A stretch of 64,000 nucleotides of DNA from the IMG/VR virus record IMGVR_UViG_3300021425_003554, one strand, 5' to 3'. This DNA is from a virus (Duplodnaviria; Caudoviricetes). A program made the translations under genes and the position numbers. Below, piece by piece: positions 4,154 through 46,772 of the stretch; within the stretch, counting starts at the first letter, position 1, and each line of letters starts with the position of its first letter. Below the pieces are notes generated by a model that saw only the letters and a list, made by a program, of their open reading frames with translations, made no database searches and was not told where the DNA came from.

Positions 4154-5230
4154 TTATTTGGTTAGTTGTTCCTTATAGACTGTGTTATATCCCAACTGAT
4201 TTTTTCCAAAATCGGTCAATGTTTTCAATGCTGTTGGTGTTATAAATGATTTCAGTGTTTTCACAGCGGCATCACCGTCTGTGCCTGTTCTCCATTTGTA
4301 TTTTCCAACATTCTTTTCGATTGCCTTTATAGATTCTGGATCGTTGATCATCCTATTCAGTGCATCAACCAATTTATCTTTATTTGGATTACCTCTGTTT
4401 ACCCAAAATGCTTTTTGTAAGGCATCTCTCCAACTTTTCACAAGTTTGTATGCATCATAAAAGTCACCGCTTGGTTCAACACCGTGCATTGACTGAAACA
4501 ACTCTTCGAATGTTGGTTCAGAAAAATTAGGATCTTTGTCGTGTTTGCCGGTATCAACATTTAATAACCCATGATGGAACCAAGTGATAGCATCTCCAGA
4601 CTCTATCACAGGTGTCACGTGTTTTTTATATGCGGCTGGATTTTCTCTCGTTGCGTTTAGATCTCCTCTACGAAACGCAAGTCTCCTCTCAGATCCGCTC
4701 ATGCCTTTTACCCATACAATTTTTTCATTCCACGTTTGTATTACGTCACCGTTTGGTCCTGCCAATAACATCACAATGGCCATTATTTCCGGTGTCATTC
4801 CCGAACCCGAAGGAAATTTGATAGGACCATTTGATAGGTCTGCATTATCACGAGCACCCACAATAATGTTCAAGTTCATTTGTCCAATCGATTCCCAATC
4901 AAAATAATTGTAATCGACCGGTTCCATTAGATATGATATACCGTTACCTCCATGAGATACCAATATTGTTTTATCATCAAATCTTAATGTGTTTTGAAAT
5001 TCGTTTGGACCCAGTTGGTCTCTGGCACCTGGTTTGTAGATGAGATTGATCTTCTCACCCAAGTGTTTCTCCCATTCGGCCACAACTATCTGTGCCCACA
5101 CAGAAGTTCCACCCGACGGGTTCTGTGGCACGATTAAATTGTAATCTGCTTTTGCAATTTTTCCAAACATCACTCCCACCACAAGTATGCCAACTAGTAT
5201 GGCACTTTTTATCATTCTTTTTTTAAGCAT
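4154..5230 (-). CDS. tctC: tripartite tricarboxylate transporter substrate-binding protein (TctC/Bug family)
   Basis: Signal peptide (GKIAKA/DY), LIVPQNPSGGTSVWAQ equivalent to the Bug P..pGG..D motif, YKPGA; directly follows tctA. Confidence 0.75.
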   Translation of the reverse strand: MLKKRMIKSAILVGILVVGVMFGKIAKADYNLIVPQNPSGGTSVWAQIVVAEWEKHLGEKINLIYKPGARDQLGPNEFQNTLRFDDKTILVSHGGNGISYLMEPVDYNYFDWESIGQMNLNIIVGARDNADLSNGPIKFPSGSGMTPEIMAIVMLLAGPNGDVIQTWNEKIVWVKGMSGSERRLAFRRGDLNATRENPAAYKKHVTPVIESGDAITWFHHGLLNVDTGKHDKDPNFSEPTFEELFQSMHGVEPSGDFYDAYKLVKSWRDALQKAFWVNRGNPNKDKLVDALNRMINDPESIKAIEKNVGKYKWRTGTDGDAAVKTLKSFITPTALKTLTDFGKNQLGYNTVYKEQLTK

Positions 5231-6659
5231 AATCTATCCTGTTTTTTCTTGTTATTCCGACCCATGTTATCATTATAACACAGAGTATTATAAAAATAAA
5301 GACCGGTCTTTGAAAAATTTCATCGACCGAATGTAACGATATCAATTGGTATGACAAGTTGTAAATTCTATCACTTAAAAGATAACCGATCAACAACGCC
5401 GGTCTGCTTATTTTCATATATTTACAACCTAAGCCCAAGGCAGAAAAAATTACCAAAGTGGCAAGATCTTCCCAACCGCCGGTGTACTGCATGGTTGCCC
5501 AAATAATGATTGCTATTATGAAAGGAAAATAATAGATGTATGGTAATTTTGTTATATATCCTGCGAAATAAGCCAATCCATAACAGATAAAAGCAGTGAT
5601 GATCGTTCCTGCCAGGAAGCCAAATGTCATACTATCAAATAGTTGAGTATCATAGAACGTGTCTGGTGATCCCAGATCTATTCCTATGTACAGAAATAAT
5701 CCCATCAGGATGGCGGCAAAAGGTGCTCCCGGTATGCCAAACAACACAGTGGGAATAAAGGACGAGGCCTTCTGTGCATTGTTGGCTCCCTCGGCTCCTA
5801 TCACTCCTCTCACATTTCCATTTCCAAATTTTTCGTTTGGGTTTGAAGCAACCGTGGCACCATAACTCAACCAATCTGCCATTGCTCCACCCAGTCCGGG
5901 CAGTAGTCCTATGAACGAACCTATGGCTCCTCCGCGTATGCTATCTTTCCAGCAATGTAAAGTGTCTTTTATCCCTTGTAAAATTCCTGACCAACTGCCT
6001 TTCAATGCCGCGGCATCTACTGTCTGTTTTCTTTTACGCCAACCTTCCCATAATTCTGGTATGGCAAAAAGTCCTGCCACGAACGGCAATATCTGTACTC
6101 CATCCTCAAGGTATCTCCAGCCCATTGTGAAACGTGGCACATTGTTGGCATCCACTCCCACTAGGCCTATCACGACACCTAATATTATGGCTAGTATGCT
6201 TCTGATGTAATGCTTGGTTGATAAAAAACCCACCGTGACAAAAGCCAAAACCACCAACGCCCATAATTCCGGTATTCCCATGTACATCACAATGTTGGTA
6301 TAGTAAGGCAAAAATAAAAATGTGAGAGAACCAAATATCAATCCGTTTAGGGTGCTGGATGTGATTGCGGCACTCAGGGCTCGTGATGCTTCGCCGTTTC
6401 TTGCCATGGGGAATCCATCCACCATGGTTGCGGCCGCTGAATTGGCACCGGGTATGCCCAACAGCACACCGCTGAAAGAATCACCCGTTGTCGAGGATGC
6501 CACAACTGCCACACAGAATATCACGCCCAGGTAGGGATCGGATACAAAATAAGGCATCACACCAAACAGTGCTATCAATCCTGTGGTGGCTCCCGCGGCC
6601 GGTATTATGCCAATTATCAATCCAAAAAATATTCCGGCAAATAAAAATATCAGTTCCAT
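5223..6659 (-). CDS. tctA: tripartite tricarboxylate transporter large permease (TctA family)
   Basis: Multi-TM protein with GIIPAAG, LLGIPGANSAAATMVDGFPMARNGEA..AL, GLLPGLGG, AEGANNA...SFIP...FGIPG. Confidence 0.92.
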   Translation of the reverse strand: MELIFLFAGIFFGLIIGIIPAAGATTGLIALFGVMPYFVSDPYLGVIFCVAVVASSTTGDSFSGVLLGIPGANSAAATMVDGFPMARNGEASRALSAAITSSTLNGLIFGSLTFLFLPYYTNIVMYMGIPELWALVVLAFVTVGFLSTKHYIRSILAIILGVVIGLVGVDANNVPRFTMGWRYLEDGVQILPFVAGLFAIPELWEGWRKRKQTVDAAALKGSWSGILQGIKDTLHCWKDSIRGGAIGSFIGLLPGLGGAMADWLSYGATVASNPNEKFGNGNVRGVIGAEGANNAQKASSFIPTVLFGIPGAPFAAILMGLFLYIGIDLGSPDTFYDTQLFDSMTFGFLAGTIITAFICYGLAYFAGYITKLPYIYYFPFIIAIIIWATMQYTGGWEDLATLVIFSALGLGCKYMKISRPALLIGYLLSDRIYNLSYQLISLHSVDEIFQRPVFIFIILCVIMITWVGITRKNRIDYA

Positions 6660-6661
6660 TT

Positions 6662-7069
6662 CTATTTTTTTCTTATCATGCTTCCGTGTACTCTCACTCT
6701 GATGTGTCCGTTATAATAATCATCAGACTCCAACACCTTTCGAGCAAACTGTTCTCTGGCTTCCACGTAAGATAGTTCACCTTTGTTCTTGCAATAAAAT
6801 AATATCTCCCTGGTGAATTTATCGTTTCCTATTTTTTGTATGTCTTCCAGCAATGCATCACTGGAACCGTAATAATCTCTCCAATCGGAATCTACCTTGA
6901 ATCTTCTTTTATTTTTTCTGCCTTTTAACGGAGGTCTAGATCTTTTAAATTTTGCTAATTTTTTGCCAATATATTTCTTACCATTGGTTGTATTTGTTAT
7001 CTCGTACACAAATCCAACACAATCGTTTGGTAATTCATCGACCGGTTTTCCTTCAAACATCCACTGCAT
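6662..7069 (-). CDS. GIY-YIG-superfamily conserved T4-like phage protein
   Basis: GFVYEITNTTNGKKYIGKK, DWRDYYGSS, E.REQF; probable start MQWMFEG at 7069, just after a minus-strand TAAATA (7075-7080). Confidence 0.7.
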   Translation of the reverse strand: MQWMFEGKPVDELPNDCVGFVYEITNTTNGKKYIGKKLAKFKRSRPPLKGRKNKRRFKVDSDWRDYYGSSDALLEDIQKIGNDKFTREILFYCKNKGELSYVEAREQFARKVLESDDYYNGHIRVRVHGSMIRKK

Positions 7070-7124
7070 GATGGTATTTAAACTCAATACTGTTCACCGA
7101 ATTTTATTTGATTGTTATATAGTA

Positions 7125-8364: not shown

Positions 8365-8890
8365 ACCAATTTTTGTAGTACTCGGTCTGACGCAACTTGT
8401 CCTCAAACTTTTTTAACTTGGTCCTGCTCTGAACCAACAGTAAGATATATTTTCCGTTGTTGAGTTTGATATTTTTTACTTTTTCAACAATGTCGGGATG
8501 ATCTTCCATTATGACCAAATCTCGTTTTTTATAAATGCTGTTCAACTTGACTCCCAGTTGTTTGGTTTGTCTTACGGTCCAACGTTCGGGGTCGGCTATG
8601 ATTATCAGCACATCTTTTTTATCTGTGTCAAACTTGTCGATCAGATCGTGTATGTGTGAATCGGATTGGTCTGACAGCAATTCAACAAACTTGACCTTGC
8701 CTTTGAGGCGGGCCTGTCTGGCATACGGACAAGGAGGCAGATCTGCGAACACCGGGTGTGGCACCTCCACGAACTCCTTGATCCAACGTAGCACGTCTTT
8801 GCGTGGATCACTCTTGTTCTTGTTGTTCCTGATCTTGTTGTTCTTGTTCGACGTCGGGTTGATCTTGGGTGTCGTCCTCAGTTGATTCAT
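8303..8890 (-). CDS. DUF1415-family protein
   Basis: W...FVE.......LPPCPYAR.A and EDHPD motifs; start uncertain because of overlap with the upstream gene. Confidence 0.65.
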   Translation of the reverse strand: MNQLRTTPKINPTSNKNNKIRNNKNKSDPRKDVLRWIKEFVEVPHPVFADLPPCPYARQARLKGKVKFVELLSDQSDSHIHDLIDKFDTDKKDVLIIIADPERWTVRQTKQLGVKLNSIYKKRDLVIMEDHPDIVEKVKNIKLNNGKYILLLVQSRTKLKKFEDKLRQTEYYKNWSKSHLESVTGAWRHPLKSRS

Positions 8891-9182
8891 TTTTGAGCTC
8901 TCTTATTTTTTCCAGTGCTTCGTTTAGTAAACGTTCTTTGGTTTCCAGTTTGATTTGGAGATTGGATATCTCCTTGTTCTGTTCACCAATTTTGTGTCCT
9001 AGACTTTGCACGTCGCTGGTTGCGTGTTCCAGTTTAATCAACACCTGCTTGATTCGTGATTCTTTTTGTTTGAGAGAAGACTCTGCGATATCGCGGTCTT
9101 TACTTAGATCTTTTATTGTCTCTTTAAGTTCTCGAACTAGTTCGCGTTCCGACATATGTTTAATTATACTGTTCCCTTGCAT
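8808..9182 (-). CDS. coiled-coil hypothetical protein
   Basis: Heptad-rich with acidic Q/E tail; start possibly at MSERELV. Confidence 0.6.
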   Translation of the reverse strand: MQGNSIIKHMSERELVRELKETIKDLSKDRDIAESSLKQKESRIKQVLIKLEHATSDVQSLGHKIGEQNKEISNLQIKLETKERLLNEALEKIRELKNESTEDDTQDQPDVEQEQQDQEQQEQE

Positions 9183-9212
9183 CCATTATATTATACTATA
9201 TTTTTTTCAATT

Positions 9213-9449
9213 TTAAAAGAACGGTTGTCCGGTTTTTTTGGTAGTTTCCAAATTATCTTTGATGATATCACTGATTATTCCTCGCTCTTCGTTGCTCATG
9301 TGCAGTGCTTCTTGGTAAGTTACTCCACCTCGCATGAACCAACAGATCTTGAACAATTCCTGTTTTACAGTTTTACCTTCATTTTCCAAATCTTTGAGAT
9401 ATTTTATAATATCAGATTCCTCGAGTGACAGTAACTTTATACGAAAAAA
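9213..9449 (-). CDS. start-less ORF reached by probable -1 frameshift (gp51/gpGT-like tail assembly chaperone extension)
   Basis: 76 open codons RIKLLSLEES...ELFKICWFMRGGVTYQEALHMSNEERGII...GQPFF*; no ATG for the first 36 codons; begins at a T TTT TTC heptamer. Confidence 0.7.
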   Translation of the reverse strand, partial: FFRIKLLSLEESDIIKYLKDLENEGKTVKQELFKICWFMRGGVTYQEALHMSNEERGIISDIIKDNLETTKKTGQPFF

Positions 9450-10294
9450 TTTGAGTTATCAAATGTCAATGGTACTTCGTAAGATATAGGTGCACCTTTT
9501 TTGATTTGCTCTTCATCGGATTTCACTGTGAAAGGTTTCACCGCACCTTGTGATCTCATCTCAATCAGTGCATTTTCAATTTCCTTGATTTTTTTCGCAC
9601 CTGCATTTTCTACAAAACTTTTTATTTGTATGGGATCTGACACCGATTGGCCATCTGGTAACTTTATAGAGTTTATGTTATTGATTAATAGTGTTGAATT
9701 TAGTTCATTTAATTTTTTAAAACTTTCTGTGAACCTTTTTGTTTTTTCTTCTGCAGGCAATTCACTGGCATTGATCTGCGTGTATAATCTTTGTTGTTCG
9801 AATGTTTTTAATTGTGCATCGGTCATTTCCTTGTATGTCAAGGGTTTGATTTCAATCACAAGTCCATCCGATGTTGTGAAAGTGTCGTCGATCTTTTGTT
9901 GCTGAATCCTGTCCAACACATCCGGTAATCTGATCTCGTGCTTGATGGAGTCATTTGTTACCGGAGCAACACTCGTGACTTCCATTGTTTCCCCAAAACT
10001 TGCAATCCTGATTCCGACCAAAACTGTGTCAATGTCGTAATTTACAAGTCTCCATGGATCGAGTATTGTTGGTATACAACTTTTGATAACATCAACCGTT
10101 GCTTGTCCGTTCATCATGGCATCAGGTGTTCTAAATGCCAATTCGTCCATGGCTGTCATTGGCAATACAGGGTGTTCTCCTGTTGTGGTTTTAGCAACCA
10201 CATCGCTTTTGTAGTATTTTTCACCACTGGGCAACTTGATACTGATAGCCGGTTGCCTGTAGTACTTTTGTAATGGGTTCGAATTTTCTGTCAT
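9437..10294 (-). CDS. gp26: baseplate hub / tail assembly chaperone (T4 gp26-like)
   Basis: NPLQKYYRQPAISIKLPSG, LPMTAMDEL, D.D.VL..IRIASFGE; adjacent to the tape measure gene. Confidence 0.75.
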   Translation of the reverse strand: MTENSNPLQKYYRQPAISIKLPSGEKYYKSDVVAKTTTGEHPVLPMTAMDELAFRTPDAMMNGQATVDVIKSCIPTILDPWRLVNYDIDTVLVGIRIASFGETMEVTSVAPVTNDSIKHEIRLPDVLDRIQQQKIDDTFTTSDGLVIEIKPLTYKEMTDAQLKTFEQQRLYTQINASELPAEEKTKRFTESFKKLNELNSTLLINNINSIKLPDGQSVSDPIQIKSFVENAGAKKIKEIENALIEMRSQGAVKPFTVKSDEEQIKKGAPISYEVPLTFDNSNFFV

Positions 10295-10371: not shown

Positions 10372-12588
10372 ATGGCTGATGACATTTTAAACGAGATACA
10401 AGACCTTATTAACAAGGTAAAACAGGACAAATCTGGTAAAAATACCAATGTCACTGCATCATCTGTTACAGCATTGGCTAAAGCACTGGCCAAAGCGTCC
10501 TCGAGCACAGAACTAAGAAGATTAAACCAAGAGTATACCAATCTAATTAAATCGGCAAAACTTTCTGCAAAAGCAGAATCGGATTCAATAAAGATCTTAA
10601 ATGAATTAACAGATGCACAAGAAAAAACCATCAAGGCATCACAAGACCTTGACGAGAGATTCTTTCAATTGGCAAAATCCACAGGTGCAAGTACAATACA
10701 AGCACAACGATTTGCCGATCGAGCAAAAACTACCAGAGGTGTTTTAGGAAAACTCGGTGATGCCGCTTCAACCGGATCCGGTAAAATTTCAGACTTTACA
10801 GAAAGTTTTAAAGGATTAGGACCGATTGGCGGATTTATCGCAGACATCGGTGCTCGACTCGAATCAAACATTGACAATTACAGAACTCTTGCAAATACTG
10901 GAGCAACTTTTAACAAAAGTTTAATCGAGTTAAGAGAAACTGCCGCATCGGCTGGATTACCGATCAGCGACTTTGTTAATTTGATCAAATCAAATTCAGA
11001 AAATTTAGCATCACTCTACGGAAGCACAACTCTGGGAGCCAGAGGATTTGCTAGATTAAGCGAAGCATTCAGACAGACGTCAGTGGAACAATTGATGCCG
11101 TTGGGTCTCACTGTGGACGAGTTAAATGAAAATTTATTAACCTCAATAACTCTACAACGAAGATTAGGAATTTTTGATCAAAATGCCACAGAAGAAAATG
11201 TTAGAGCGGCAACAAATTTAACTTTGGAAATGGACAAATTGGCCAAGTTAACTGGACAACAACGTTCGGCCATGGCGAGACAACTAGAAGCACAGTTGTC
11301 AAATGCAAGGTTTAACGCCTTCCTGGGAAGACAAACAGAAGACACTCGACAAAGATTACAAGTATTCGCCGCCGGAATTTCAGAAATTAGTCCTTCATTT
11401 AAAACAGGATTAGAAGATTTGATCGCGAACGCCGGTGTACCTGTAACAGATGCGGCAAGAGATTTAGCAATGTCTATGCCGGGTATTGACAGCATAGTAA
11501 AACAATTGATTTCCGGTAGCATTGATATGGGAACTGCAATGACATTGATGCAATCGTCAGCGAAACAATCTCAAGAAATGTTTAGAGGTGTTGCTGAAAC
11601 AGGACAAGTTTCATTCATTGATAATTTATTTCCAGGCATTAACGCATTGGCAACAAAGGTTTTTGATTTATCAGCAGTGACCGATGAACAGAGAGCTCAA
11701 GCCGATGCCACAACAAAATCATTATCACAATTTCAAGATGCTTCGAAAAGATTATCATCATCATTCCAATCAATCGAAACCGGTTTCTTTGCCACAATCG
11801 GCGATGTATTAGGACCGGCCGGAACAGGATTGAATATGGGAATGAAATCGCTCGCCACAGGCATAAGTGAGTTGAGTAACGGAACCAAAGCACTTTTATA
11901 TGTGTCACATCAATTTGGCTCATGGCTCATGGACAAAGCCTCTCAAATTGTAACAACTTCATTGGGAGTTGCCGCTGGTATTAGAATGGCAGGTCCTATG
12001 GGAATTGGCATGGGCACTGTAGGCAGAGTGGCCGGACGTGCAGGTATTGCCGGGTTGGGAGCGGCCACGGCAATAGGTGGTGCTGGATTGGCAGGATCAG
12101 CCGAAACTCCTGGAGGCAAGGCATTGGGCATAGGAACAGCGGCACTGGGTGGTGCTGTAACTGGAGCACAAATTGGTATGCTGTTTGGTCCGGCGGGTGC
12201 GGCAATTGGTGGATTGTTGGGAGGATTGGCAGGTGCTGGATTGGGTGCTGTCGCGGCTTCTGGTAACAAAACCGGTGAAGGAAGATTAACTGGAACATTG
12301 GGAGAAACTGGTTATAGATTCGAACCAAAAACAACAAAATTAACTGTACACAAGGGAGAAACTGTGTTAAATCCACAGGAAGCAAAACAATATGCCACAG
12401 AGACCGATGGTAATAATATAATGAGAGCCGAATTGATGAAGTTTAATACCACTGCACAGGCAACTCTAGAAGTACAAAAAAACGTGGAAAAACAAATAAG
12501 TAGACTAGTAAGCATTAATGCAAACACAGAAAAAAATACAGAGAGGTCGAATAAAAAACTTGATCAATTGGGCAGTTCTCTAGTATAA
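10372..12588 (+). CDS. tail tape measure protein
   Basis: 738 aa alpha-helical A/Q/S-rich protein with a Gly/Ala-rich hydrophobic segment and C-terminal VHKGETVLNP; next to the chaperone gene. Confidence 0.75.
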   Translation: MADDILNEIQDLINKVKQDKSGKNTNVTASSVTALAKALAKASSSTELRRLNQEYTNLIKSAKLSAKAESDSIKILNELTDAQEKTIKASQDLDERFFQLAKSTGASTIQAQRFADRAKTTRGVLGKLGDAASTGSGKISDFTESFKGLGPIGGFIADIGARLESNIDNYRTLANTGATFNKSLIELRETAASAGLPISDFVNLIKSNSENLASLYGSTTLGARGFARLSEAFRQTSVEQLMPLGLTVDELNENLLTSITLQRRLGIFDQNATEENVRAATNLTLEMDKLAKLTGQQRSAMARQLEAQLSNARFNAFLGRQTEDTRQRLQVFAAGISEISPSFKTGLEDLIANAGVPVTDAARDLAMSMPGIDSIVKQLISGSIDMGTAMTLMQSSAKQSQEMFRGVAETGQVSFIDNLFPGINALATKVFDLSAVTDEQRAQADATTKSLSQFQDASKRLSSSFQSIETGFFATIGDVLGPAGTGLNMGMKSLATGISELSNGTKALLYVSHQFGSWLMDKASQIVTTSLGVAAGIRMAGPMGIGMGTVGRVAGRAGIAGLGAATAIGGAGLAGSAETPGGKALGIGTAALGGAVTGAQIGMLFGPAGAAIGGLLGGLAGAGLGAVAASGNKTGEGRLTGTLGETGYRFEPKTTKLTVHKGETVLNPQEAKQYATETDGNNIMRAELMKFNTTAQATLEVQKNVEKQISRLVSINANTEKNTERSNKKLDQLGSSLV

Positions 12589-12595
12589 TATTGAT

Positions 12596-14305
12596 ATGGC
12601 TTGGAAAAAATATTTTAAAGACGCAAACCTTTCACCAATAGCAGGTGATAGAAGTCCACAATTCGCAAAAAGAAATTATTCATCTTATCTGCCCGATGTT
12701 TACACTGGACACCCTAACAGAATTCAAAGATACTTTCAATACGATCAGATGGATACCGACTCTGAGATCAATGCGGCACTAGACATATTGGCAGAATTTT
12801 GTACACAGGACAACACCGAAAACGAAACACCGTTTGATTTAGTTTTCAAAGATGAAATAACACAGTCTGAAATTAAACTTTTAAAAAAAGCACTACAACA
12901 ATGGGTCAAAACAAATCAATTCACAAAAAGAATTTTCAAATTATTTAGGAACGTTTTAAAATACGGAGATTGTTTCTTTATCAGAGATCCAGAAACCAAT
13001 AAATTGTTATATATTGATCCAGCAAAAGTGGACAGGATCATTGTCAACGAGTCAGAAGGCAAACTGCCAGAACAATATATCATTAGAGATATCAATCCAA
13101 ACTTACAAAAATTATCTGCCACACAGATCACACCAAATCAATTGTATGGTGGTACCAACCAAGGAGCATTCAACCAAAACTTTACAACTGCCGGACAAGC
13201 CGCGGGTAATATGGCATCGGGCACAGGCGGTGCTTCGGGAGGAAGATTCTACAGAACAATGAATCAATATGCCATCAATGCCGAACACGTGGTACACTTG
13301 ACATTAAGTGATGGAATGGATAATCTATTCCCATTCGGACAATCAGTTCTAGAACAGGTATTCAAAGTTTACAAACAGAAAGAGTTATTAGAAGATGCAA
13401 TTATCATTTACAGAGTGCAAAGAGCACCAGAACGAAGAGTGTTCTACATCGATGTGGGCAATATGCCAACACACTTGGCCATGCAGTTTGTTGAAAGAGT
13501 TAAAAATGAAATCAATCAAAGAAGAATTCCATCAACATCGGGTGGTGCTAACTTTATAGATGCCACTTACAACCCAATGAGTATCAACGAAGATTACTTC
13601 TTCCCTCAAACAGCGGAAGGTCGAGGATCTAAAGTAGACACATTACCGGGCGGTACTAACCTGGGCGAGATCGACGATTTGAGATTCTTTACAAATAAAT
13701 TGTATAGAGGATTAAGAATACCAAGTTCATATTTGCCAACCGGAGCGGATGACGGTGCACAACAGTACAATGACGGCAGAGTGGGCACAGCATACATTCA
13801 AGAATTGAGATTCAACAAATACTGTGAAAGATTACAAAATTTAATCTCACCGGTGTTGGATGAAGAGTTTAAAATTTGGATCAACAACAAAGGTTATACA
13901 TTAGACGGTAGCACATTTGAAATCAAATTCAATCCACCACAAAACTTTGCTCAATACAGACAAACCGAGATGGATCAAAGCAGGGTAGGAACATTTACTC
14001 AGGTAGCAGAATTACCTTATATGTCAAAAAGATTTGCTCTCAAAAGATATCTAGGATTAACCGAAGAAGAAATGGCGCAAAATGCAACATTGTGGGCAGA
14101 AGAAAATAATGTGGCACAGAAAAAACAATCCAAGACAACACAGATGAGAACAGCAGGAATTTCACAAGCCGACGTTAGTGCGGATCTAGATAATCTAGAA
14201 GAACCAACAGCAGAACCAGGCACTGAACAACCAGGACAACAAACAACCACACCGGGAGCACCAACACCACCAGGACAAACTCCGGGTGGAGGAACACAGG
14301 TTTAA
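12596..14305 (+). CDS. gp20: portal protein (T4 gp20-like)
   Basis: LLEDAIIIYRVQRAPERRVFYIDVGNMP, EDYFFP, GSKVDTLPGG, LYRGLRIP.S. Confidence 0.97.
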   Translation: MAWKKYFKDANLSPIAGDRSPQFAKRNYSSYLPDVYTGHPNRIQRYFQYDQMDTDSEINAALDILAEFCTQDNTENETPFDLVFKDEITQSEIKLLKKALQQWVKTNQFTKRIFKLFRNVLKYGDCFFIRDPETNKLLYIDPAKVDRIIVNESEGKLPEQYIIRDINPNLQKLSATQITPNQLYGGTNQGAFNQNFTTAGQAAGNMASGTGGASGGRFYRTMNQYAINAEHVVHLTLSDGMDNLFPFGQSVLEQVFKVYKQKELLEDAIIIYRVQRAPERRVFYIDVGNMPTHLAMQFVERVKNEINQRRIPSTSGGANFIDATYNPMSINEDYFFPQTAEGRGSKVDTLPGGTNLGEIDDLRFFTNKLYRGLRIPSSYLPTGADDGAQQYNDGRVGTAYIQELRFNKYCERLQNLISPVLDEEFKIWINNKGYTLDGSTFEIKFNPPQNFAQYRQTEMDQSRVGTFTQVAELPYMSKRFALKRYLGLTEEEMAQNATLWAEENNVAQKKQSKTTQMRTAGISQADVSADLDNLEEPTAEPGTEQPGQQTTTPGAPTPPGQTPGGGTQV

Positions 14306-41432: not shown

Positions 41433-41541
41433 ATTGTATATTTACGTTCCCTATATAGGTACCTTTATTTCGTGTAGTTTTAAACGTTTTTAACTAAAAA
41501 CCAATAAATACATTCAGTTACACTTGCAAGGAGAACAAAAT

Positions 41542-44500
41542 ATGGCATTAACATCACCAGGAGTAGAAGTTTCAGTTATAAATGAAAGTTTTTACGTACC
41601 AGCAGATGCGGGTACAACTCCACTATTAATAGTAGCGACAGCACAAGACAAATTAAATGGAGCAGGAACTAGTACTGCGGTTGGAACACAAACTGCCAAC
41701 GCAAACACAGTTTACCTAGTATCGTCACAAAGAGAATTAACAGAAACATTTGGTGATCCAAAATTTTATAGTGATTCATCAGGAAATGCATTAAACGGTT
41801 ACGAAATAAATGAATACGGATTACAAGCCGCTTATTCATTTTTAGGAGTGGCCAACAGAGCATTTGTATTAAGAGCAAACGTAAATTTATCAGAACTTAT
41901 CGGTTCTGCAACAGCACCAACATCTAAACCAAACAACGGAACATATTGGTTCGACCTAACATCAAATGTCCCTGGTTTATTTGAGTGGAATAACACAAAC
42001 TCAACTTTTACAGCAATCTCTCCAATCTACATAACATCAGTTGATGATTTAGTTGGCGGAGTTTCAACAGGTGCACCAAAAACATCAATTGGTACAATCG
42101 GTTCTTATGCAATTAATACAACTCATGTAACTAACAAAACTTATTATAAAACATCCGGCAATGCTTGGGTGCAAATTGGATCTAGTGCTTGGAGCACAGC
42201 CATTGGTGCGAATGCATCATTTGTACAGTCTCCACACACATCTATTCCACAATGGAAAACAGCAGGTAACATTCCAACTGGTTCTGTTTGGTTTAAGACT
42301 ACCACTCCAAACTCTGGTGCTGACGTAAGTGTAAAACTTTACAACAGTGCATCAGATTCTTGGTCAGTAGTTGATGCTCCTCTTTATGCAAATAACCACG
42401 CGGCGATTTATGGACTTGATCCTATAAATGGCGGAACTGGCATTTCAGCAGGAACACTTTACACACAATACAATGTAGGCGAACAATCAACATTGGGTGC
42501 ATTTGATGTAACTCCAAAATTACAAGACTTCCAAATTTTTAGATACGAAGGTGGAGCAACAACAATTACTTCTAATAATACAACACCATCATTCACTAGC
42601 GGAAACACTTTTGCAATACAAGAATCAAGAAAAGCATCGGGTTCTCTAGCAGGCTGGGACGGTTCAACGGTGGTCAGTCTAGGTGGAACTAGTGCAGACG
42701 ATTTTGTTGCGGCGGTAAATGGTGCTGGATTAACTAACATTTCAGCAGAAAAACTTTCAACTGGTGCAATCAAAATGACACACGCACTTGGCGGCGAATT
42801 TAGAATGTGGCAAATAACAGGAACTGCTCTAGATGATGCAGGTTTTGGTGTTGCTAATGGACACGCATATGGAACATACACAGCAAATTCATCAACACTA
42901 GTTGATAATTTATACGATGCTCCGGCAGGTTACACTGAAGATTCAACACAACCAGCAATGGTGGTTGCTTCAAATTGGAAACGTTTATCATATGTTGCAT
43001 CAACATCGGCTCCGACAAACGAGCCAGCAGATGGTACATTATGGTACAACACAAACTTAGAAGCAGATATCATGGTTCACAACGGAACAACATGGGTTGG
43101 CTACTTGGACAGCACGTCTCCATATTACAATGCAGATGCGGCACAACAAACAGATCCAAATGGTCCGATCTTCTCAGCATCAGAACCAACTACACAATCA
43201 GATGCGACAGCATTAAAAATTGGTGATGTTTGGATTGATACTAGCGACTTAGAAAACTATCCAAGAATTTATAGATATCAATCAACAGCAGACGGAAATG
43301 CTTTTGTATTAATTGATAACACAGATCAAACTACTGGTGATGGTATAGTGTTTGCCGATGCCAGATCAAACACAGCGGCAACTAAATCAGACTCGTCATC
43401 AACAGGCGGTGCACCATCTGATAGTTCGATCAAAGATCTTTTAAGTGATAACTTCTTAGATCCAGATGCACCAAATCCATCATTATATCCTCAAGGTATC
43501 TTATTGTTTAACACAAGAAGATCTGGATACAATGTTAAAGAATACAAAAATAATCATATTACAACTGCAAAATATCCTGGATCAGGATCTTCGGGTAAAG
43601 GTAACATCAGATATAACAGCAACGAATCAGTTTCTGGTTATTTCAAAGACAGATGGGTTACTAAATCGACTAACAGTGCCAACGGTGCTGGAACATTTGG
43701 AAGAAAAGCAGTTAGAAAAGTAATTACTGAACAAATAAAATCAGAGATTAACACCAACCAAGCAATCAGAGAAGATCAAAGAGGATTCAATGTTATTGCT
43801 TGTCCGGGATATCCTGAAGTTATTTCAGAAATGATTAATCTAAATACTGACAGAAATAATACAGCATTTATCGTAGGTGATACTCCGATGAGATTAGCAG
43901 GAACATCAACTGCTATTTCAAATTGGGCTAACAACACAGCAGTAGCATCAGATAACGGTGAAGATGGTCTTGTATCAAGTTCGGATTATTTAGGAGTATT
44001 TTATCCTTCAGGAAGAACTACATCTAACAATGGATCATCAATCGTTGTACCACCATCTCATATGATTTTGAGAACATTGGCAAATAATGATAATGTTGCG
44101 TTTCCATGGTTTGCACCAGCAGGTACAAGACGTGGTATCATCGACAATGCAACAGCAGTAGGATACATTAACTCAGCATCGGGAGAATTTGAAACAATCT
44201 CGTTGACAGAATCTGTTAGAGATTCAATGTTTACTGCAAAAATTAATCCAATTACATTCTTTTCAGGAACAGGAATAGTAAACTTTGGTAATTTAACTAA
44301 AACATCTAGTTCGTCTGCTTTAGATAGAATTAACGTTTCTAGATTAACAGTTTATCTAAGATCACAACTTGATAAACTTGCCAAACCTTTCATTTTTGAA
44401 CCAAATGATGAATTGACTAGAAATGAAATTAAAGGATCGATCGAGTCTTTCTTATTAGAATTACTTGGACAAAGAGCACTATACGATTTCTTAGTAGTTT

Positions 44501-44646
44501 GTGACGAGACTAACAACACAGCAACTAGAATTGATAGAAATGAATTGTATGTGGATATTGCAATTGAACCAGTTAAATCGGTTGAATTTATTTACATACC
44601 TTTAAGAATCAAAAACACAGGGGAGATAGCAAACCTAGGTAACTAA
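41542..44646 (+). CDS. gp18: tail sheath protein (T4 gp18-like)
   Basis: MALTSPGVEV, WFAPAG..RG, INPI, DRINV.RL, IFEPND..TR, EFIYI. Confidence 0.95.
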   Translation: MALTSPGVEVSVINESFYVPADAGTTPLLIVATAQDKLNGAGTSTAVGTQTANANTVYLVSSQRELTETFGDPKFYSDSSGNALNGYEINEYGLQAAYSFLGVANRAFVLRANVNLSELIGSATAPTSKPNNGTYWFDLTSNVPGLFEWNNTNSTFTAISPIYITSVDDLVGGVSTGAPKTSIGTIGSYAINTTHVTNKTYYKTSGNAWVQIGSSAWSTAIGANASFVQSPHTSIPQWKTAGNIPTGSVWFKTTTPNSGADVSVKLYNSASDSWSVVDAPLYANNHAAIYGLDPINGGTGISAGTLYTQYNVGEQSTLGAFDVTPKLQDFQIFRYEGGATTITSNNTTPSFTSGNTFAIQESRKASGSLAGWDGSTVVSLGGTSADDFVAAVNGAGLTNISAEKLSTGAIKMTHALGGEFRMWQITGTALDDAGFGVANGHAYGTYTANSSTLVDNLYDAPAGYTEDSTQPAMVVASNWKRLSYVASTSAPTNEPADGTLWYNTNLEADIMVHNGTTWVGYLDSTSPYYNADAAQQTDPNGPIFSASEPTTQSDATALKIGDVWIDTSDLENYPRIYRYQSTADGNAFVLIDNTDQTTGDGIVFADARSNTAATKSDSSSTGGAPSDSSIKDLLSDNFLDPDAPNPSLYPQGILLFNTRRSGYNVKEYKNNHITTAKYPGSGSSGKGNIRYNSNESVSGYFKDRWVTKSTNSANGAGTFGRKAVRKVITEQIKSEINTNQAIREDQRGFNVIACPGYPEVISEMINLNTDRNNTAFIVGDTPMRLAGTSTAISNWANNTAVASDNGEDGLVSSSDYLGVFYPSGRTTSNNGSSIVVPPSHMILRTLANNDNVAFPWFAPAGTRRGIIDNATAVGYINSASGEFETISLTESVRDSMFTAKINPITFFSGTGIVNFGNLTKTSSSSALDRINVSRLTVYLRSQLDKLAKPFIFEPNDELTRNEIKGSIESFLLELLGQRALYDFLVVCDETNNTATRIDRNELYVDIAIEPVKSVEFIYIPLRIKNTGEIANLGN

Positions 44647-44669: not shown

Positions 44670-45296
44670 ATGGCAATTTCAACACTTTCAAAATTTACAG
44701 TACCATTATCAAACGACCAGAGTTCGTCAACTCAAGGTTTGTTGATGCCGAAACTTCAATATAGATTTAGAGTAATTCTCGAAAACTTTGGAGTTTCTAC
44801 ACCTAGATCAGAAATTACTAAACAAGTAATGGATGTTACAAGACCAAATTTAACATTTGAAAACACAACACTTGATGTATATAACTCAAAAGTATACATT
44901 GCTGGTAAACACACTTGGGAACCGATCACTCTTACAATGAGAGATGACGTTAATAACTCAGTGTCTAAACTAGTAGGTGAACAAATTCAGAAACAATTTG
45001 ATTTCTTTGAACAGGCTTCTGCCGCTTCAGGAATTGATTACAAATTCACAACTAGAATTGAAATGTTAGATGGTGGTAATGGAGCATCAACACCGGGTAT
45101 ATTAGAAACATTTGAGTTATATGGTTCATTTGTTGAATCAGTAAACTATAATAGTTTGGCTTATAATACTTCAGAACCGGCAACTATTACACTATCAATT
45201 AGATACGACAATGCAGTACAAACACCACAAGGTACTGGAATCGGAACAGCATTAACAAGAACTATCGGTACATTAACAACCGGTGGTGGAAGATAA
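44670..45296 (+). CDS. gp19: tail tube protein (T4 gp19-like)
   Basis: Follows the sheath; PKLQYRFRV, GKHTWEPITLT.RDD. Confidence 0.9.
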   Translation: MAISTLSKFTVPLSNDQSSSTQGLLMPKLQYRFRVILENFGVSTPRSEITKQVMDVTRPNLTFENTTLDVYNSKVYIAGKHTWEPITLTMRDDVNNSVSKLVGEQIQKQFDFFEQASAASGIDYKFTTRIEMLDGGNGASTPGILETFELYGSFVESVNYNSLAYNTSEPATITLSIRYDNAVQTPQGTGIGTALTRTIGTLTTGGGR

Positions 45297-45374: not shown

Positions 45375-46772
45375 ATGCCTAGTATTAATAATTTTTTAGA
45401 AGGATTCTCAAATGGTCTTCCAGGAATGAAAGACTATCGCCACGCAACAAGATTATATCTTGATAATAACTTTAAATTAGCACCAAAACAAAAATTTTTA
45501 TTTCATGTTGTTTTTGATATAGACAATACTACTGTCGGGGGCCGACAATTTTCACAGGATGAAAAGTTTGCTCTCAATATGCTAGTTAAGACCTGTGAAT
45601 TGCCAAAATATGATATGAACCTAGAAGAAAAAATTCAATATAACAAAAAAGTTTATGTGGGTACTAGAATTGTTTACAGACCGGTCACTATAAATTTTCA
45701 CGATGACAATGCCGATACTGTTAATGCTTTTTGGAAAAGATACTACGAGTATAACATAGCAGATTCTCAAACAATACCGGTTGCGGGCCAATACACATAT
45801 ACCAAAGACGATTTTTACAAGACAAACAGAGTGGCAACACAGTACGGCATGGATAATGCTCAGCAGAGAGGAAAACCTTTGTTGAGAAGCATACAAATTT
45901 TTGCCATGCATCAAAAAAGATTTACTTCATTTTTATTAGTAAATCCTGTTATAGGATCTTTCAGTCATGATGATCTAGACAATGCAGACGGTGGCGGAAT
46001 AATGGCAAACTCTATGCAAGTGTTTTACGAAACTGTTTTGTATGGTGCAGGCACAGTTAAATCGCCGAACATGGCCACTGGGTTTGCTGATTTATATTAC
46101 GACCTTGAGCCATCTCCTTTAAGTGTGTTGGGAGGAGGCACAACTTCTATATTCGGAGAAGGCGGAATAGTCGACGGAATTGGTGGGGTTCTTGATAGTG
46201 TTCAAAATGGCGACGTGTTAGGAGCCATTATAAAAGCAAATAACACATATCAAAATGCTAAAAAAATAAAAGCCAAAGACGCTGTCAAAGAAGAACTCAA
46301 AGGAATAGTAAAAGAAACTGTGCAGGACGTTGCAAAAACTGCCGGAACAATTAACAATCCGATCGGAAACTTCAGTGTAGGAACAGCGGCGGTGGCGGCT
46401 ATCGGTACTGTTGCTTTGGCAAAAGGTAATACATCTACTACATCAAAAAATAGTGTTCAAACAGTTATTTCAAACCCTGTTATTGATACAACAAATTATC
46501 TGAGTTCAACGGAATCATTTAATCTATTACAAAACAACACGCAGGCACAGGATAAGGTTGCATCCTTTATCTATTATCAAAAAATAGGATCTGCTCAAAA
46601 TTTAACAATTGCTCAGAGTGATGTGATCTATAATGGGTTATCAGATGCACAAAAAAATGTATGGAGAAATAGAGCAATCAACGATATAACGAGACTGGTC
46701 ACTGAAGGATACATACAAATAAATAGGCAAACAAACGATATATCTGTGTCGGCTGAGAAAGTGAATTTATAA
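45375..46772 (+). CDS. tail-tube-like baseplate/tube initiator protein (gp54/gp48-like)
   Basis: LVK..ELP, QYN.K.Y...I.Y.PV.I.FHDD tube-fold motif. Confidence 0.65.
   Translation: MPSINNFLEGFSNGLPGMKDYRHATRLYLDNNFKLAPKQKFLFHVVFDIDNTTVGGRQFSQDEKFALNMLVKTCELPKYDMNLEEKIQYNKKVYVGTRIVYRPVTINFHDDNADTVNAFWKRYYEYNIADSQTIPVAGQYTYTKDDFYKTNRVATQYGMDNAQQRGKPLLRSIQIFAMHQKRFTSFLLVNPVIGSFSHDDLDNADGGGIMANSMQVFYETVLYGAGTVKSPNMATGFADLYYDLEPSPLSVLGGGTTSIFGEGGIVDGIGGVLDSVQNGDVLGAIIKANNTYQNAKKIKAKDAVKEELKGIVKETVQDVAKTAGTINNPIGNFSVGTAAVAAIGTVALAKGNTSTTSKNSVQTVISNPVIDTTNYLSSTESFNLLQNNTQAQDKVASFIYYQKIGSAQNLTIAQSDVIYNGLSDAQKNVWRNRAINDITRLVTEGYIQINRQTNDISVSAEKVNL

Follow-up and report, generated by a model that had tools for sequence, protein, structure and literature searches.

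The tail assembly chaperones gpG and gpGT of phage lambda are said to be made by a -1 frameshift that is conserved in tail-chaperone genes (as reportedly established by Levin in 1993 and by Xu, Hendrix and Duda in 2004), the E/E+E' genes of phage P2 form another known system of the same kind, and this recoding event is among the most conserved in phages. The -1 frameshift of the tail assembly chaperone genes of long-tailed phages has been reviewed, with T4 named as the exception to its conservation (PMC5009743). The T4 proteins gp26 and gp51, listed as chaperones of baseplate-hub assembly, have had unclear roles for decades, and gp51 is needed for assembly yet absent from the particle (PMC3004832). 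Here we describe a gp26-like gene on the minus strand of a 64,000-nucleotide stretch of DNA from a virus of the Caudoviricetes (IMG/VR record IMGVR_UViG_3300021425_003554; hereafter the window, meaning this stretch at its full length), which ends in a slippery heptamer and is followed in the -1 frame by an open reading frame (ORF) that lacks a start. We consider it highly probable that the two are joined by -1 programmed ribosomal frameshifting with the logic of lambda G/GT, operating in the gp26/gp51 chaperone family (PF12322). No published report of a frameshift in a PF12322 gene was found in the open-access literature, and the papers on phages Atu_ph07 and PA5oct are silent on it; what is new here is that a recoding logic already known turns up in another protein family and another group of phages.

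The gp26-like gene and its proposed slip site

Membership in PF12322 was defined as a whole-protein score above the curated cut-off of 24.5 bits. The window protein scored 40.6 bits (3e-10; residues 17-246 on profile positions 4-189), the same model giving 215.6 bits for T4 gp26 and 177.5 bits for T4 gp51, and it was furthermore matched by phrog_150 'baseplate hub' at 7.7e-16. The AlphaFold model of this protein of 285 amino acids (aa) had a predicted local distance difference test score (pLDDT) of 86. The source, an uncultured marine giant phage, is related more closely to the RaK2-like jumbo phages than to T4 itself, and a blastn search with the region against 50,697 phage records returned zero matches. 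The elements of the locus are as follows.

9437..10294, minus strand: gp26-like gene, zero frame, encoding the short form of 285 aa (PF12322 T4_baseplate, baseplate-hub assembly chaperone family)
9443..9449, minus strand: slippery heptamer T_TTT_TTC in X_XXY_YYZ phase, made up of the Phe283-Phe284 codons and the last base of Asn282
9446..9452, minus strand: second, overlapping in-phase heptamer A_AAT_TTT, at which a slip would give an identical product
9437..9439, minus strand: zero-frame stop TAA ending the short form, one codon past the heptamer
9456..9461, minus strand: TGA TAA closing the -1 frame, four codons before CGT, the first codon after the slip
9213..9443, minus strand: -1 frame extension ORF of 76 codons and a stop (RIKLLSLEES...GQPFF, then stop), the predicted helical C-terminal domain of the long form
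9213..10294, minus strand: predicted trans-frame long form of 360 aa (the first 284 residues read in frame 0 and the last 76 in frame -1)

The gene ends ...GAT AAC TCA AAT TTT TTC GTA TAA, and behind TGA TAA the -1 frame reads L K F F R I K L L ... and remains open until the TAA at 9215-9213. Our reading of the sequence confirmed what the initial annotation had described, namely an in-frame X_XXY_YYZ heptamer (T TTT TTC) at minus-strand positions 9449-9443, a -1 frame closed by TGA TAA and then open for 76 codons (the first 36 of them without ATG), and a product of about 360 aa beside the 285-aa one (284 + 76 = 360 aa as computed). In the proposed mechanism, most ribosomes would decode Phe283 (UUU), Phe284 (UUC) and Val285 and terminate at UAA, releasing the 285-aa short form; in a minority, the two tRNA-Phe would slip in tandem by -1 on U_UUU_UUC, re-pair with UUU UUU, and continue with CGU and a further 75 codons to yield a 360-aa long form, with 284 N-terminal residues shared and a helical 76-residue C-terminal domain added (predicted junction ...DNSNFF/RIKLL...). 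We infer that the slip takes place on the ribosome rather than in transcription, and at a low rate.

By itself the heptamer is unremarkable in the window, where TTTTTTC occurs 58 times (38% guanine plus cytosine) and many ORFs have in-phase slippery heptamers near their ends, so that the window alone is little proof and the case depends on relatives. The combination of a heptamer with a long -1 ORF (74 codons past the stop) is found in this gene alone among the ORFs of the window, aside from an antisense shadow ORF (8869-9216, plus strand) and an ORF whose -1 frame merely enters the next gene. Chance does not account for this 74-codon extension past the stop, and still less for its being conserved in relatives. 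The extension taken alone had no match in Pfam, PHROG, NCBIfam or the PDB sequences.

Conservation of the site and selection on the -1 frame

A tblastn search with the 76-residue extension found a homologue directly behind the gp26-like gene in four distant cultured jumbo phages, and in IMG/VR a relative of the extension is encoded by 506 stretches, the best 80 of which were taken (70 of them distinct). Together with eight cultured jumbo phages (RaK2, 121Q, BF, XaC1, PA5oct, Atu_ph07, Phosso and Xoo-sp13) these make up the relatives examined, and the heptamer is kept in all 78 of them (70 uncultured and 8 cultured), in keeping with the frameshift put forward in the initial annotation. Each of the 70 distinct IMG/VR loci (extension identity 54-100%) has T_TTT_TTC in phase, a zero-frame stop 1-4 codons further on and a -1 ORF of exactly 76 codons. 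The same arrangement recurs in the cultured phages (8/8), whose proteins are 23-33% identical to those of the window and whose hosts range from Klebsiella to Sinorhizobium: an in-phase T_TTT_TT[C/T] lies 1-11 codons before the stop and is accompanied by a homologous -1 ORF of 70-79 codons, the heptamer being T_TTT_TTC in seven and T_TTT_TTT (a run of seven T) in Xoo-sp13. The codon before Phe-Phe encodes N, S, H, A or R in these phages, with T as its third base every time. Since Phe codons elsewhere in these genes are divided between TTT and TTC in the proportion 305 : 276, the invariant TTT-TTC is not a matter of codon bias. The overlapping heptamer A_AAT_TTT is conserved in the marine clade only (where the block CAAATTTTTTCG is conserved to at least 95% across 62 distinct sequences) and is absent from the cultured jumbo phages. 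A joined coding sequence is annotated in none of the eight jumbo-phage records, the second ORF being entered as 'hypothetical protein' or missed.

With regard to initiation, the candidate starts within the -1 ORF differ among the 70 loci, and many loci have none before Met37. In the window the first ATG is codon 37 and TTG stands at codons 19 and 30; among the relatives, TTG at codon 4 or 5 occurs only where a conserved Leu uses that codon, and ATG at codon 7 is confined to one subclade. No conserved start or ribosome-binding site of the second ORF was found in relatives; it was the presence of these that the initial annotation had singled out as incompatible with its proposal. The ratio of nonsynonymous to synonymous polymorphism (pN/pS) of extension codons 2-36 is 0.34 in the -1 frame, as against 0.94 and 1.79 in the other two, and that of codons 37-76 (0.30) is close to it; judged by these ratios, purifying selection acts on the start-less half of the -1 ORF in the -1 frame alone. 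Furthermore, the extensions align colinearly as proteins right from the residue that follows the slip (R-x-x-L-L...), and the two observations taken jointly argue that the start-less half is translated in the -1 frame.

Single-frame long forms and tandem paralogs

An exhaustive profile search with the extension returned, apart from numerous small called ORFs, a set of 319-351-aa proteins that end in this domain, a homologous C-terminal domain being present in frame in P0246, P0262, P0290 and others. The junction of these single-frame proteins (D-x4-F-R-x-K-(I/L)-L) is colinear with DNSNFF/RIKLL of the window. P0290 matches PF12322 at 1.6e-09, and its predicted structure is a single body (pLDDT 89; predicted template modelling score, pTM, 0.83) in which the added domain consists of helices 263-271, 276-305, 310-314 and 318-338.

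At all four loci examined in uncultured T4-type phages (L112-L115) the long gene comes after a separate short PF12322 gene of 276-296 aa, so that these lineages would make the two forms from two genes; in precomputed annotations the long genes of L112, L113 and L115 match PF12322, and that of L114 does so weakly. The loci share with the window the synteny of a T4-type portal gene, a tape-measure-like gene (765-829 aa in these loci) and PF12322 genes divergent from the latter, and also the C-terminal domain, which is in frame in the long paralog; they differ from it in having two genes, with a decayed heptamer in the short paralogs, where the window has a single recoded one. Three of the four short paralogs have lost the heptamer (AAT TTT ATG, AAT TTC TTT, and none, respectively). 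In the short paralog of L114 (L114:4102-4986), AAT TTT TTC still stands in phase and the -1 frame is open for a single codon before it meets a stop (CAC TGA), which looks like the relic of a former frameshift site. The decayed heptamers and the closed -1 frame of the short paralogs indicate that the heptamer is conserved only where a -1 extension follows.

In a maximum-likelihood tree, the short paralogs of L112-L114 (3/4) nest among the marine frameshift genes (with support of 97/84 and 100/97), most single-frame long forms fall in a separate, weakly supported group (26/29) with the long form of L112 apart, and the T4 rows stand on very long branches and are not placeable. An intein (PF14890 within PF07230) interrupts the T4-type portal genes of the P0262 contig and of L113:1-1709 (963 and 1015 aa).

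T4 gp26 and gp51

The separateness of genes 26 and 51 in T4, as given in the initial annotation, was borne out by a six-frame PF12322 search, which found both loci in T4 and one locus each in the complete genomes of RaK2, PA5oct, Atu_ph07 and 121Q, as well as in two large uncultured contigs of the frameshift type (197 and 289 kilobases). T4 gene 26 ends GAG TTC TTT GAG TTA CTA TAA and is followed at once by gene 25; it lacks both a slippery site and an extension, and BLASTP of the window's extension against T4 gp26 gave no match. T4 gp51 is a PF12322 paralog of gp26 (3.9e-52 over residues 1-201) with an additional 48-residue tail, which starts at the equivalent of the junction: ...VDVF is followed by KLLVNPDEI in gp51, and ...SNFF by RIKLLSLEESDI in the window.

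The likeness of this tail to the extension depends on the profile that is used. Against the single T4 gp51 tail, the hidden Markov model of the extension scored a weak 3.4 bits (10/1000 shuffles were as good), and a usable gp51 signal was obtained only with a profile of nine Straboviridae gp51 orthologs. With that profile, hhalign aligned the extension to the gp51 tail with Prob 73% (P 3.1e-5; 28 colinear columns, extension positions 38-65) and the whole long form to gp51 with Prob 76% (P 2.2e-5; 230 columns end to end, with the junction crossed). A relationship of the extension to gp51 thus has moderate support from the tail and the full-length alignment (73-76%). We judge it likely that gp51 corresponds to the long form. 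In an Atlas look-alike cluster, 33% of the members carry Pfam Gp51_C (PF28602), which we take as a lead only.

Thus T4 gp26 (208 aa) and gp51 (249 aa) resemble the window gene in belonging to PF12322 and in consisting of a short and a longer form; they differ from it in being encoded by two separate genes, in the length of the added part (48 residues in the gp51 tail, 76 in the extension) and in their very divergent sequences. T4 is probably among those related phages that have the two forms from two separate genes. The T4 pair 26/26' (as annotated in NC_000866) likewise consists of two related products from one gene of the PF12322 family, with the difference that it arises by in-frame internal initiation, which gives a C-terminal product of 95 aa that shares the C-terminus rather than the N-terminus and involves no recoding. 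In phage RB16, genes 54-51-26 run in one direction, with the long and short genes in tandem, as compared to their divergent placement in T4. The record of Acinetobacter phage Octan names gp51 'tape measure protein assembly chaperone'.

Function and comparison with lambda

By analogy with what is held for T4 gp26/gp51, both forms would act as chaperones in the assembly of baseplate hub and tape measure without becoming part of the virion; on the model of lambda gpG/gpGT, the short form would outnumber the long one, and the extension would provide a second contact. The locus shares with lambda a -1 slip at an in-phase X_XXY_YYZ site only a few codons short of where an assembly-chaperone gene ends, a second ORF that lacks a start, short and long products with a common N-terminal part, the lack of a detected downstream stimulatory RNA element, and a position beside a (probable) tape-measure gene. 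It differs from lambda in its heptamer (U_UUU_UUC here, G_GGA_AAG in lambda) and in its protein family (PF12322), in that the T4 relatives of the window gene act on the baseplate hub, and in that the window gene is divergent from the tape-measure-like gene, which lambda's precedes directly and in the same direction. The lambda G/GT arrangement invoked by the initial annotation therefore holds for the coding logic; no homology to lambda-type proteins was detected by sequence or fold, a result compatible with a distant relationship, and the gene is divergent rather than upstream. The window gene resembles G/GT in coding logic and is probably not a member of that family. An alignment of the gp26-like model against the PDB with VIA-align gave only a generic helical hairpin (Z ~8).

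Alternative explanations

Several observations weigh against the proposed frameshift or against the functional reading attached to it. The 360-aa fusion is a predicted product, and its junction peptide has to our knowledge been observed nowhere. RNAalifold, applied to 12 relatives of the marine clade, predicted 0 pairs after the heptamer, and no Shine-Dalgarno-like element is visible upstream of it; given the lack of either, the rate of frameshifting may be low. Such a stimulatory RNA structure or Shine-Dalgarno-like element is common and not obligatory for -1 frameshifting, and lambda G/GT itself frameshifts without a downstream stimulatory element, at a few percent. The chaperone function is one that we infer throughout: no PDB sequence matched, Foldseek of the gp26-like model against the PDB found nothing at E <= 0.001, and neither this model nor that of the long form could be linked to a solved tail assembly chaperone. 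Moreover, the link to gp51 depends on moderate profile probabilities (73-76%) between divergent sequences, and in the Pfam and PHROG scans no family match identified the neighbouring gene as a tape measure. Two further points of this kind, an ATG at the zero-frame stop of some cultured phages and the length of the T-run, are taken up with the explanations that they favour.

The best-surviving of these explanations, which we nevertheless regard as unlikely, is that no fusion is made, the 76-codon ORF being instead a small gene in its own right that is translated through termination-reinitiation, possibly with ATA or another non-canonical codon as its start. The zero-frame stop shares bases with an ATG in four of the eight cultured phages (ATGA in Atu_ph07 and Phosso, TAATG in 121Q and BF), the window has ATA at the position of that ATG, and gene callers, as well as several GenBank records, list the ORF as a gene of its own, 58-75 aa long; in those four phages the second ORF could thus also be made alone, by translational coupling. 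However, this ATG explains neither the heptamer nor the conserved residues upstream of it: whichever start might be used, the residues that separate it from the heptamer show conservation and purifying selection in the -1 frame, and in BF, XaC1, RaK2 and Xoo-sp13 the homology begins at the heptamer, 6-11 codons before the zero-frame stop. Most marine loci, moreover, lack any ATG, GTG or TTG close to the stop (in some, codons 1-36 contain none at all), and coupling would leave unexplained the invariant heptamer, the T that precedes it in third position and the colinear single-frame long forms. Coupling and frameshifting could operate together in some lineages.

A second alternative, which we hold to be very improbable, is that the long form arises by transcriptional slippage, with RNA polymerase altering the length of the T-run in some transcripts. 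It shares with ribosomal frameshifting the need for a conserved run, and here there is a run of six T; productive transcriptional slippage in bacteria, however, usually needs runs of about nine or more, and the run is always found in the exact X_XXY_YYZ phase needed for tandem tRNA slippage (a phase partly fixed by the conserved Phe-Phe). Contigs from an independent DNA run and from an RNA library have the same T-run with no indel, which is weak evidence on this point, as contigs hide rare variants.

That the locus is non-functional, being either a homopolymer assembly or sequencing error in a single-frame gene or the decaying remnant of a long gene, is hardly credible in spite of the single-frame long forms of other lineages and the error-prone nature of homopolymers. 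The T-run is unchanged in the independent contigs, and an identical frame break recurs in 78 independent genomes, among them finished ones of cultured phages; both findings speak against a misassembly, as does the observation that in each of the 93 phage records to which a single-frame long form was matched, the alignment ends no later than the junction. The extension, moreover, is under purifying selection, with a zero-frame stop always close behind.

Implications for PF12322

With -1 frameshifting as the preferred explanation, a wider proposal can be formulated, which we consider about as likely as not to be true: PF12322 would supply the tail assembly chaperones so far missing from T4-type and jumbo myoviruses, with an obligatory short/long pair that is met in three interchangeable ways (frameshift, paralogs and possibly internal initiation). 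If this is true, the first way would be followed by the RaK2-like phages and their abundant marine and freshwater relatives, the second by T4 26/51 and L112-L115, and the third possibly by T4 26/26'; T4 would then be no exception to the G/GT rule, recoding having been replaced by gene duplication or the reverse. The proposal contains the testable hypothesis that T4 gp26 and gp51 are the short and long forms of one chaperone, which would explain the missing frameshift of T4. Furthermore, the frameshift would correct the annotation of one gene in all RaK2-like jumbo phages (a group with several members under study for therapy or biocontrol) and in hundreds of environmental phage contigs, and the loci with a frameshift, with two genes and with decayed heptamers would offer a natural series for the study of how recoding is gained or lost.

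Gene neighbourhood

The genes that adjoin the locus on the side of its 5' end are the following.

10372..12588, plus strand: 738-aa virion-protein gene, probable tape measure, with a long helical part and a Gly/Ala-rich hydrophobic stretch near the C-terminus
12596..14305, plus strand: T4-type portal gene (phrog_213, 8.7e-116)

The order portal, tape-measure-like gene and PF12322 gene is found in L112-L115 as well as in the window. A neighbour of the same kind (720-829 aa) lies beside the PF12322 gene in RaK2, XaC1, BF, PA5oct, 121Q and L112-L115, and in all of these, as in the window, the PF12322 gene is divergent from it; in Atu_ph07 the annotated tape measure is ~15 genes away. The 738-aa protein has a weak phrog_1047 match and, by BLASTP, no similarity to T4 gp29; its homologue in the RaK2 record is noted as similar to a tape measure. 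From its composition, its length and this annotation, it is a probable tape measure, and the adjacency of the gp26-like gene to the tape measure that had been proposed therefore stands as to position and is probable as to the identity of the neighbour, given the lack of a family match. In the PA5oct record there is a mass-spectrometry note on the neighbouring structural protein and none on the hub gene, which is no more than a hint that the product of the latter is absent from the virion.

Directly downstream of the extension ORF, at 8808-9182 on the minus strand, lies an ORF for a 124-aa coiled-coil protein with a Gln/Glu/Asp-rich tail, for which no convincing family match was found (PF24627 was below the cut-off and phrog_13576 reached only 0.001). 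Other annotated genes of the window lie further away.

41524-44646, plus strand: 1040-aa sheath protein (PF17482)
44670-45296, plus strand: tail tube protein (phrog_4542, 1.3e-54)
45375-46772, plus strand: 465-aa protein with a tube-like domain, the second such protein
5223-6659, minus strand: TctA-family tricarboxylate transporter subunit, 478 aa (PF01970, 6.7e-92)
6662-7087, minus strand: SegE-type GIY-YIG homing endonuclease gene, directly upstream of the TctA-family gene (PF19835, 2.6e-38)

The tube, tube-like and sheath proteins are candidate binding partners of the extension. The TctA-family gene may be an auxiliary metabolic gene, perhaps carried in with the mobile endonuclease.

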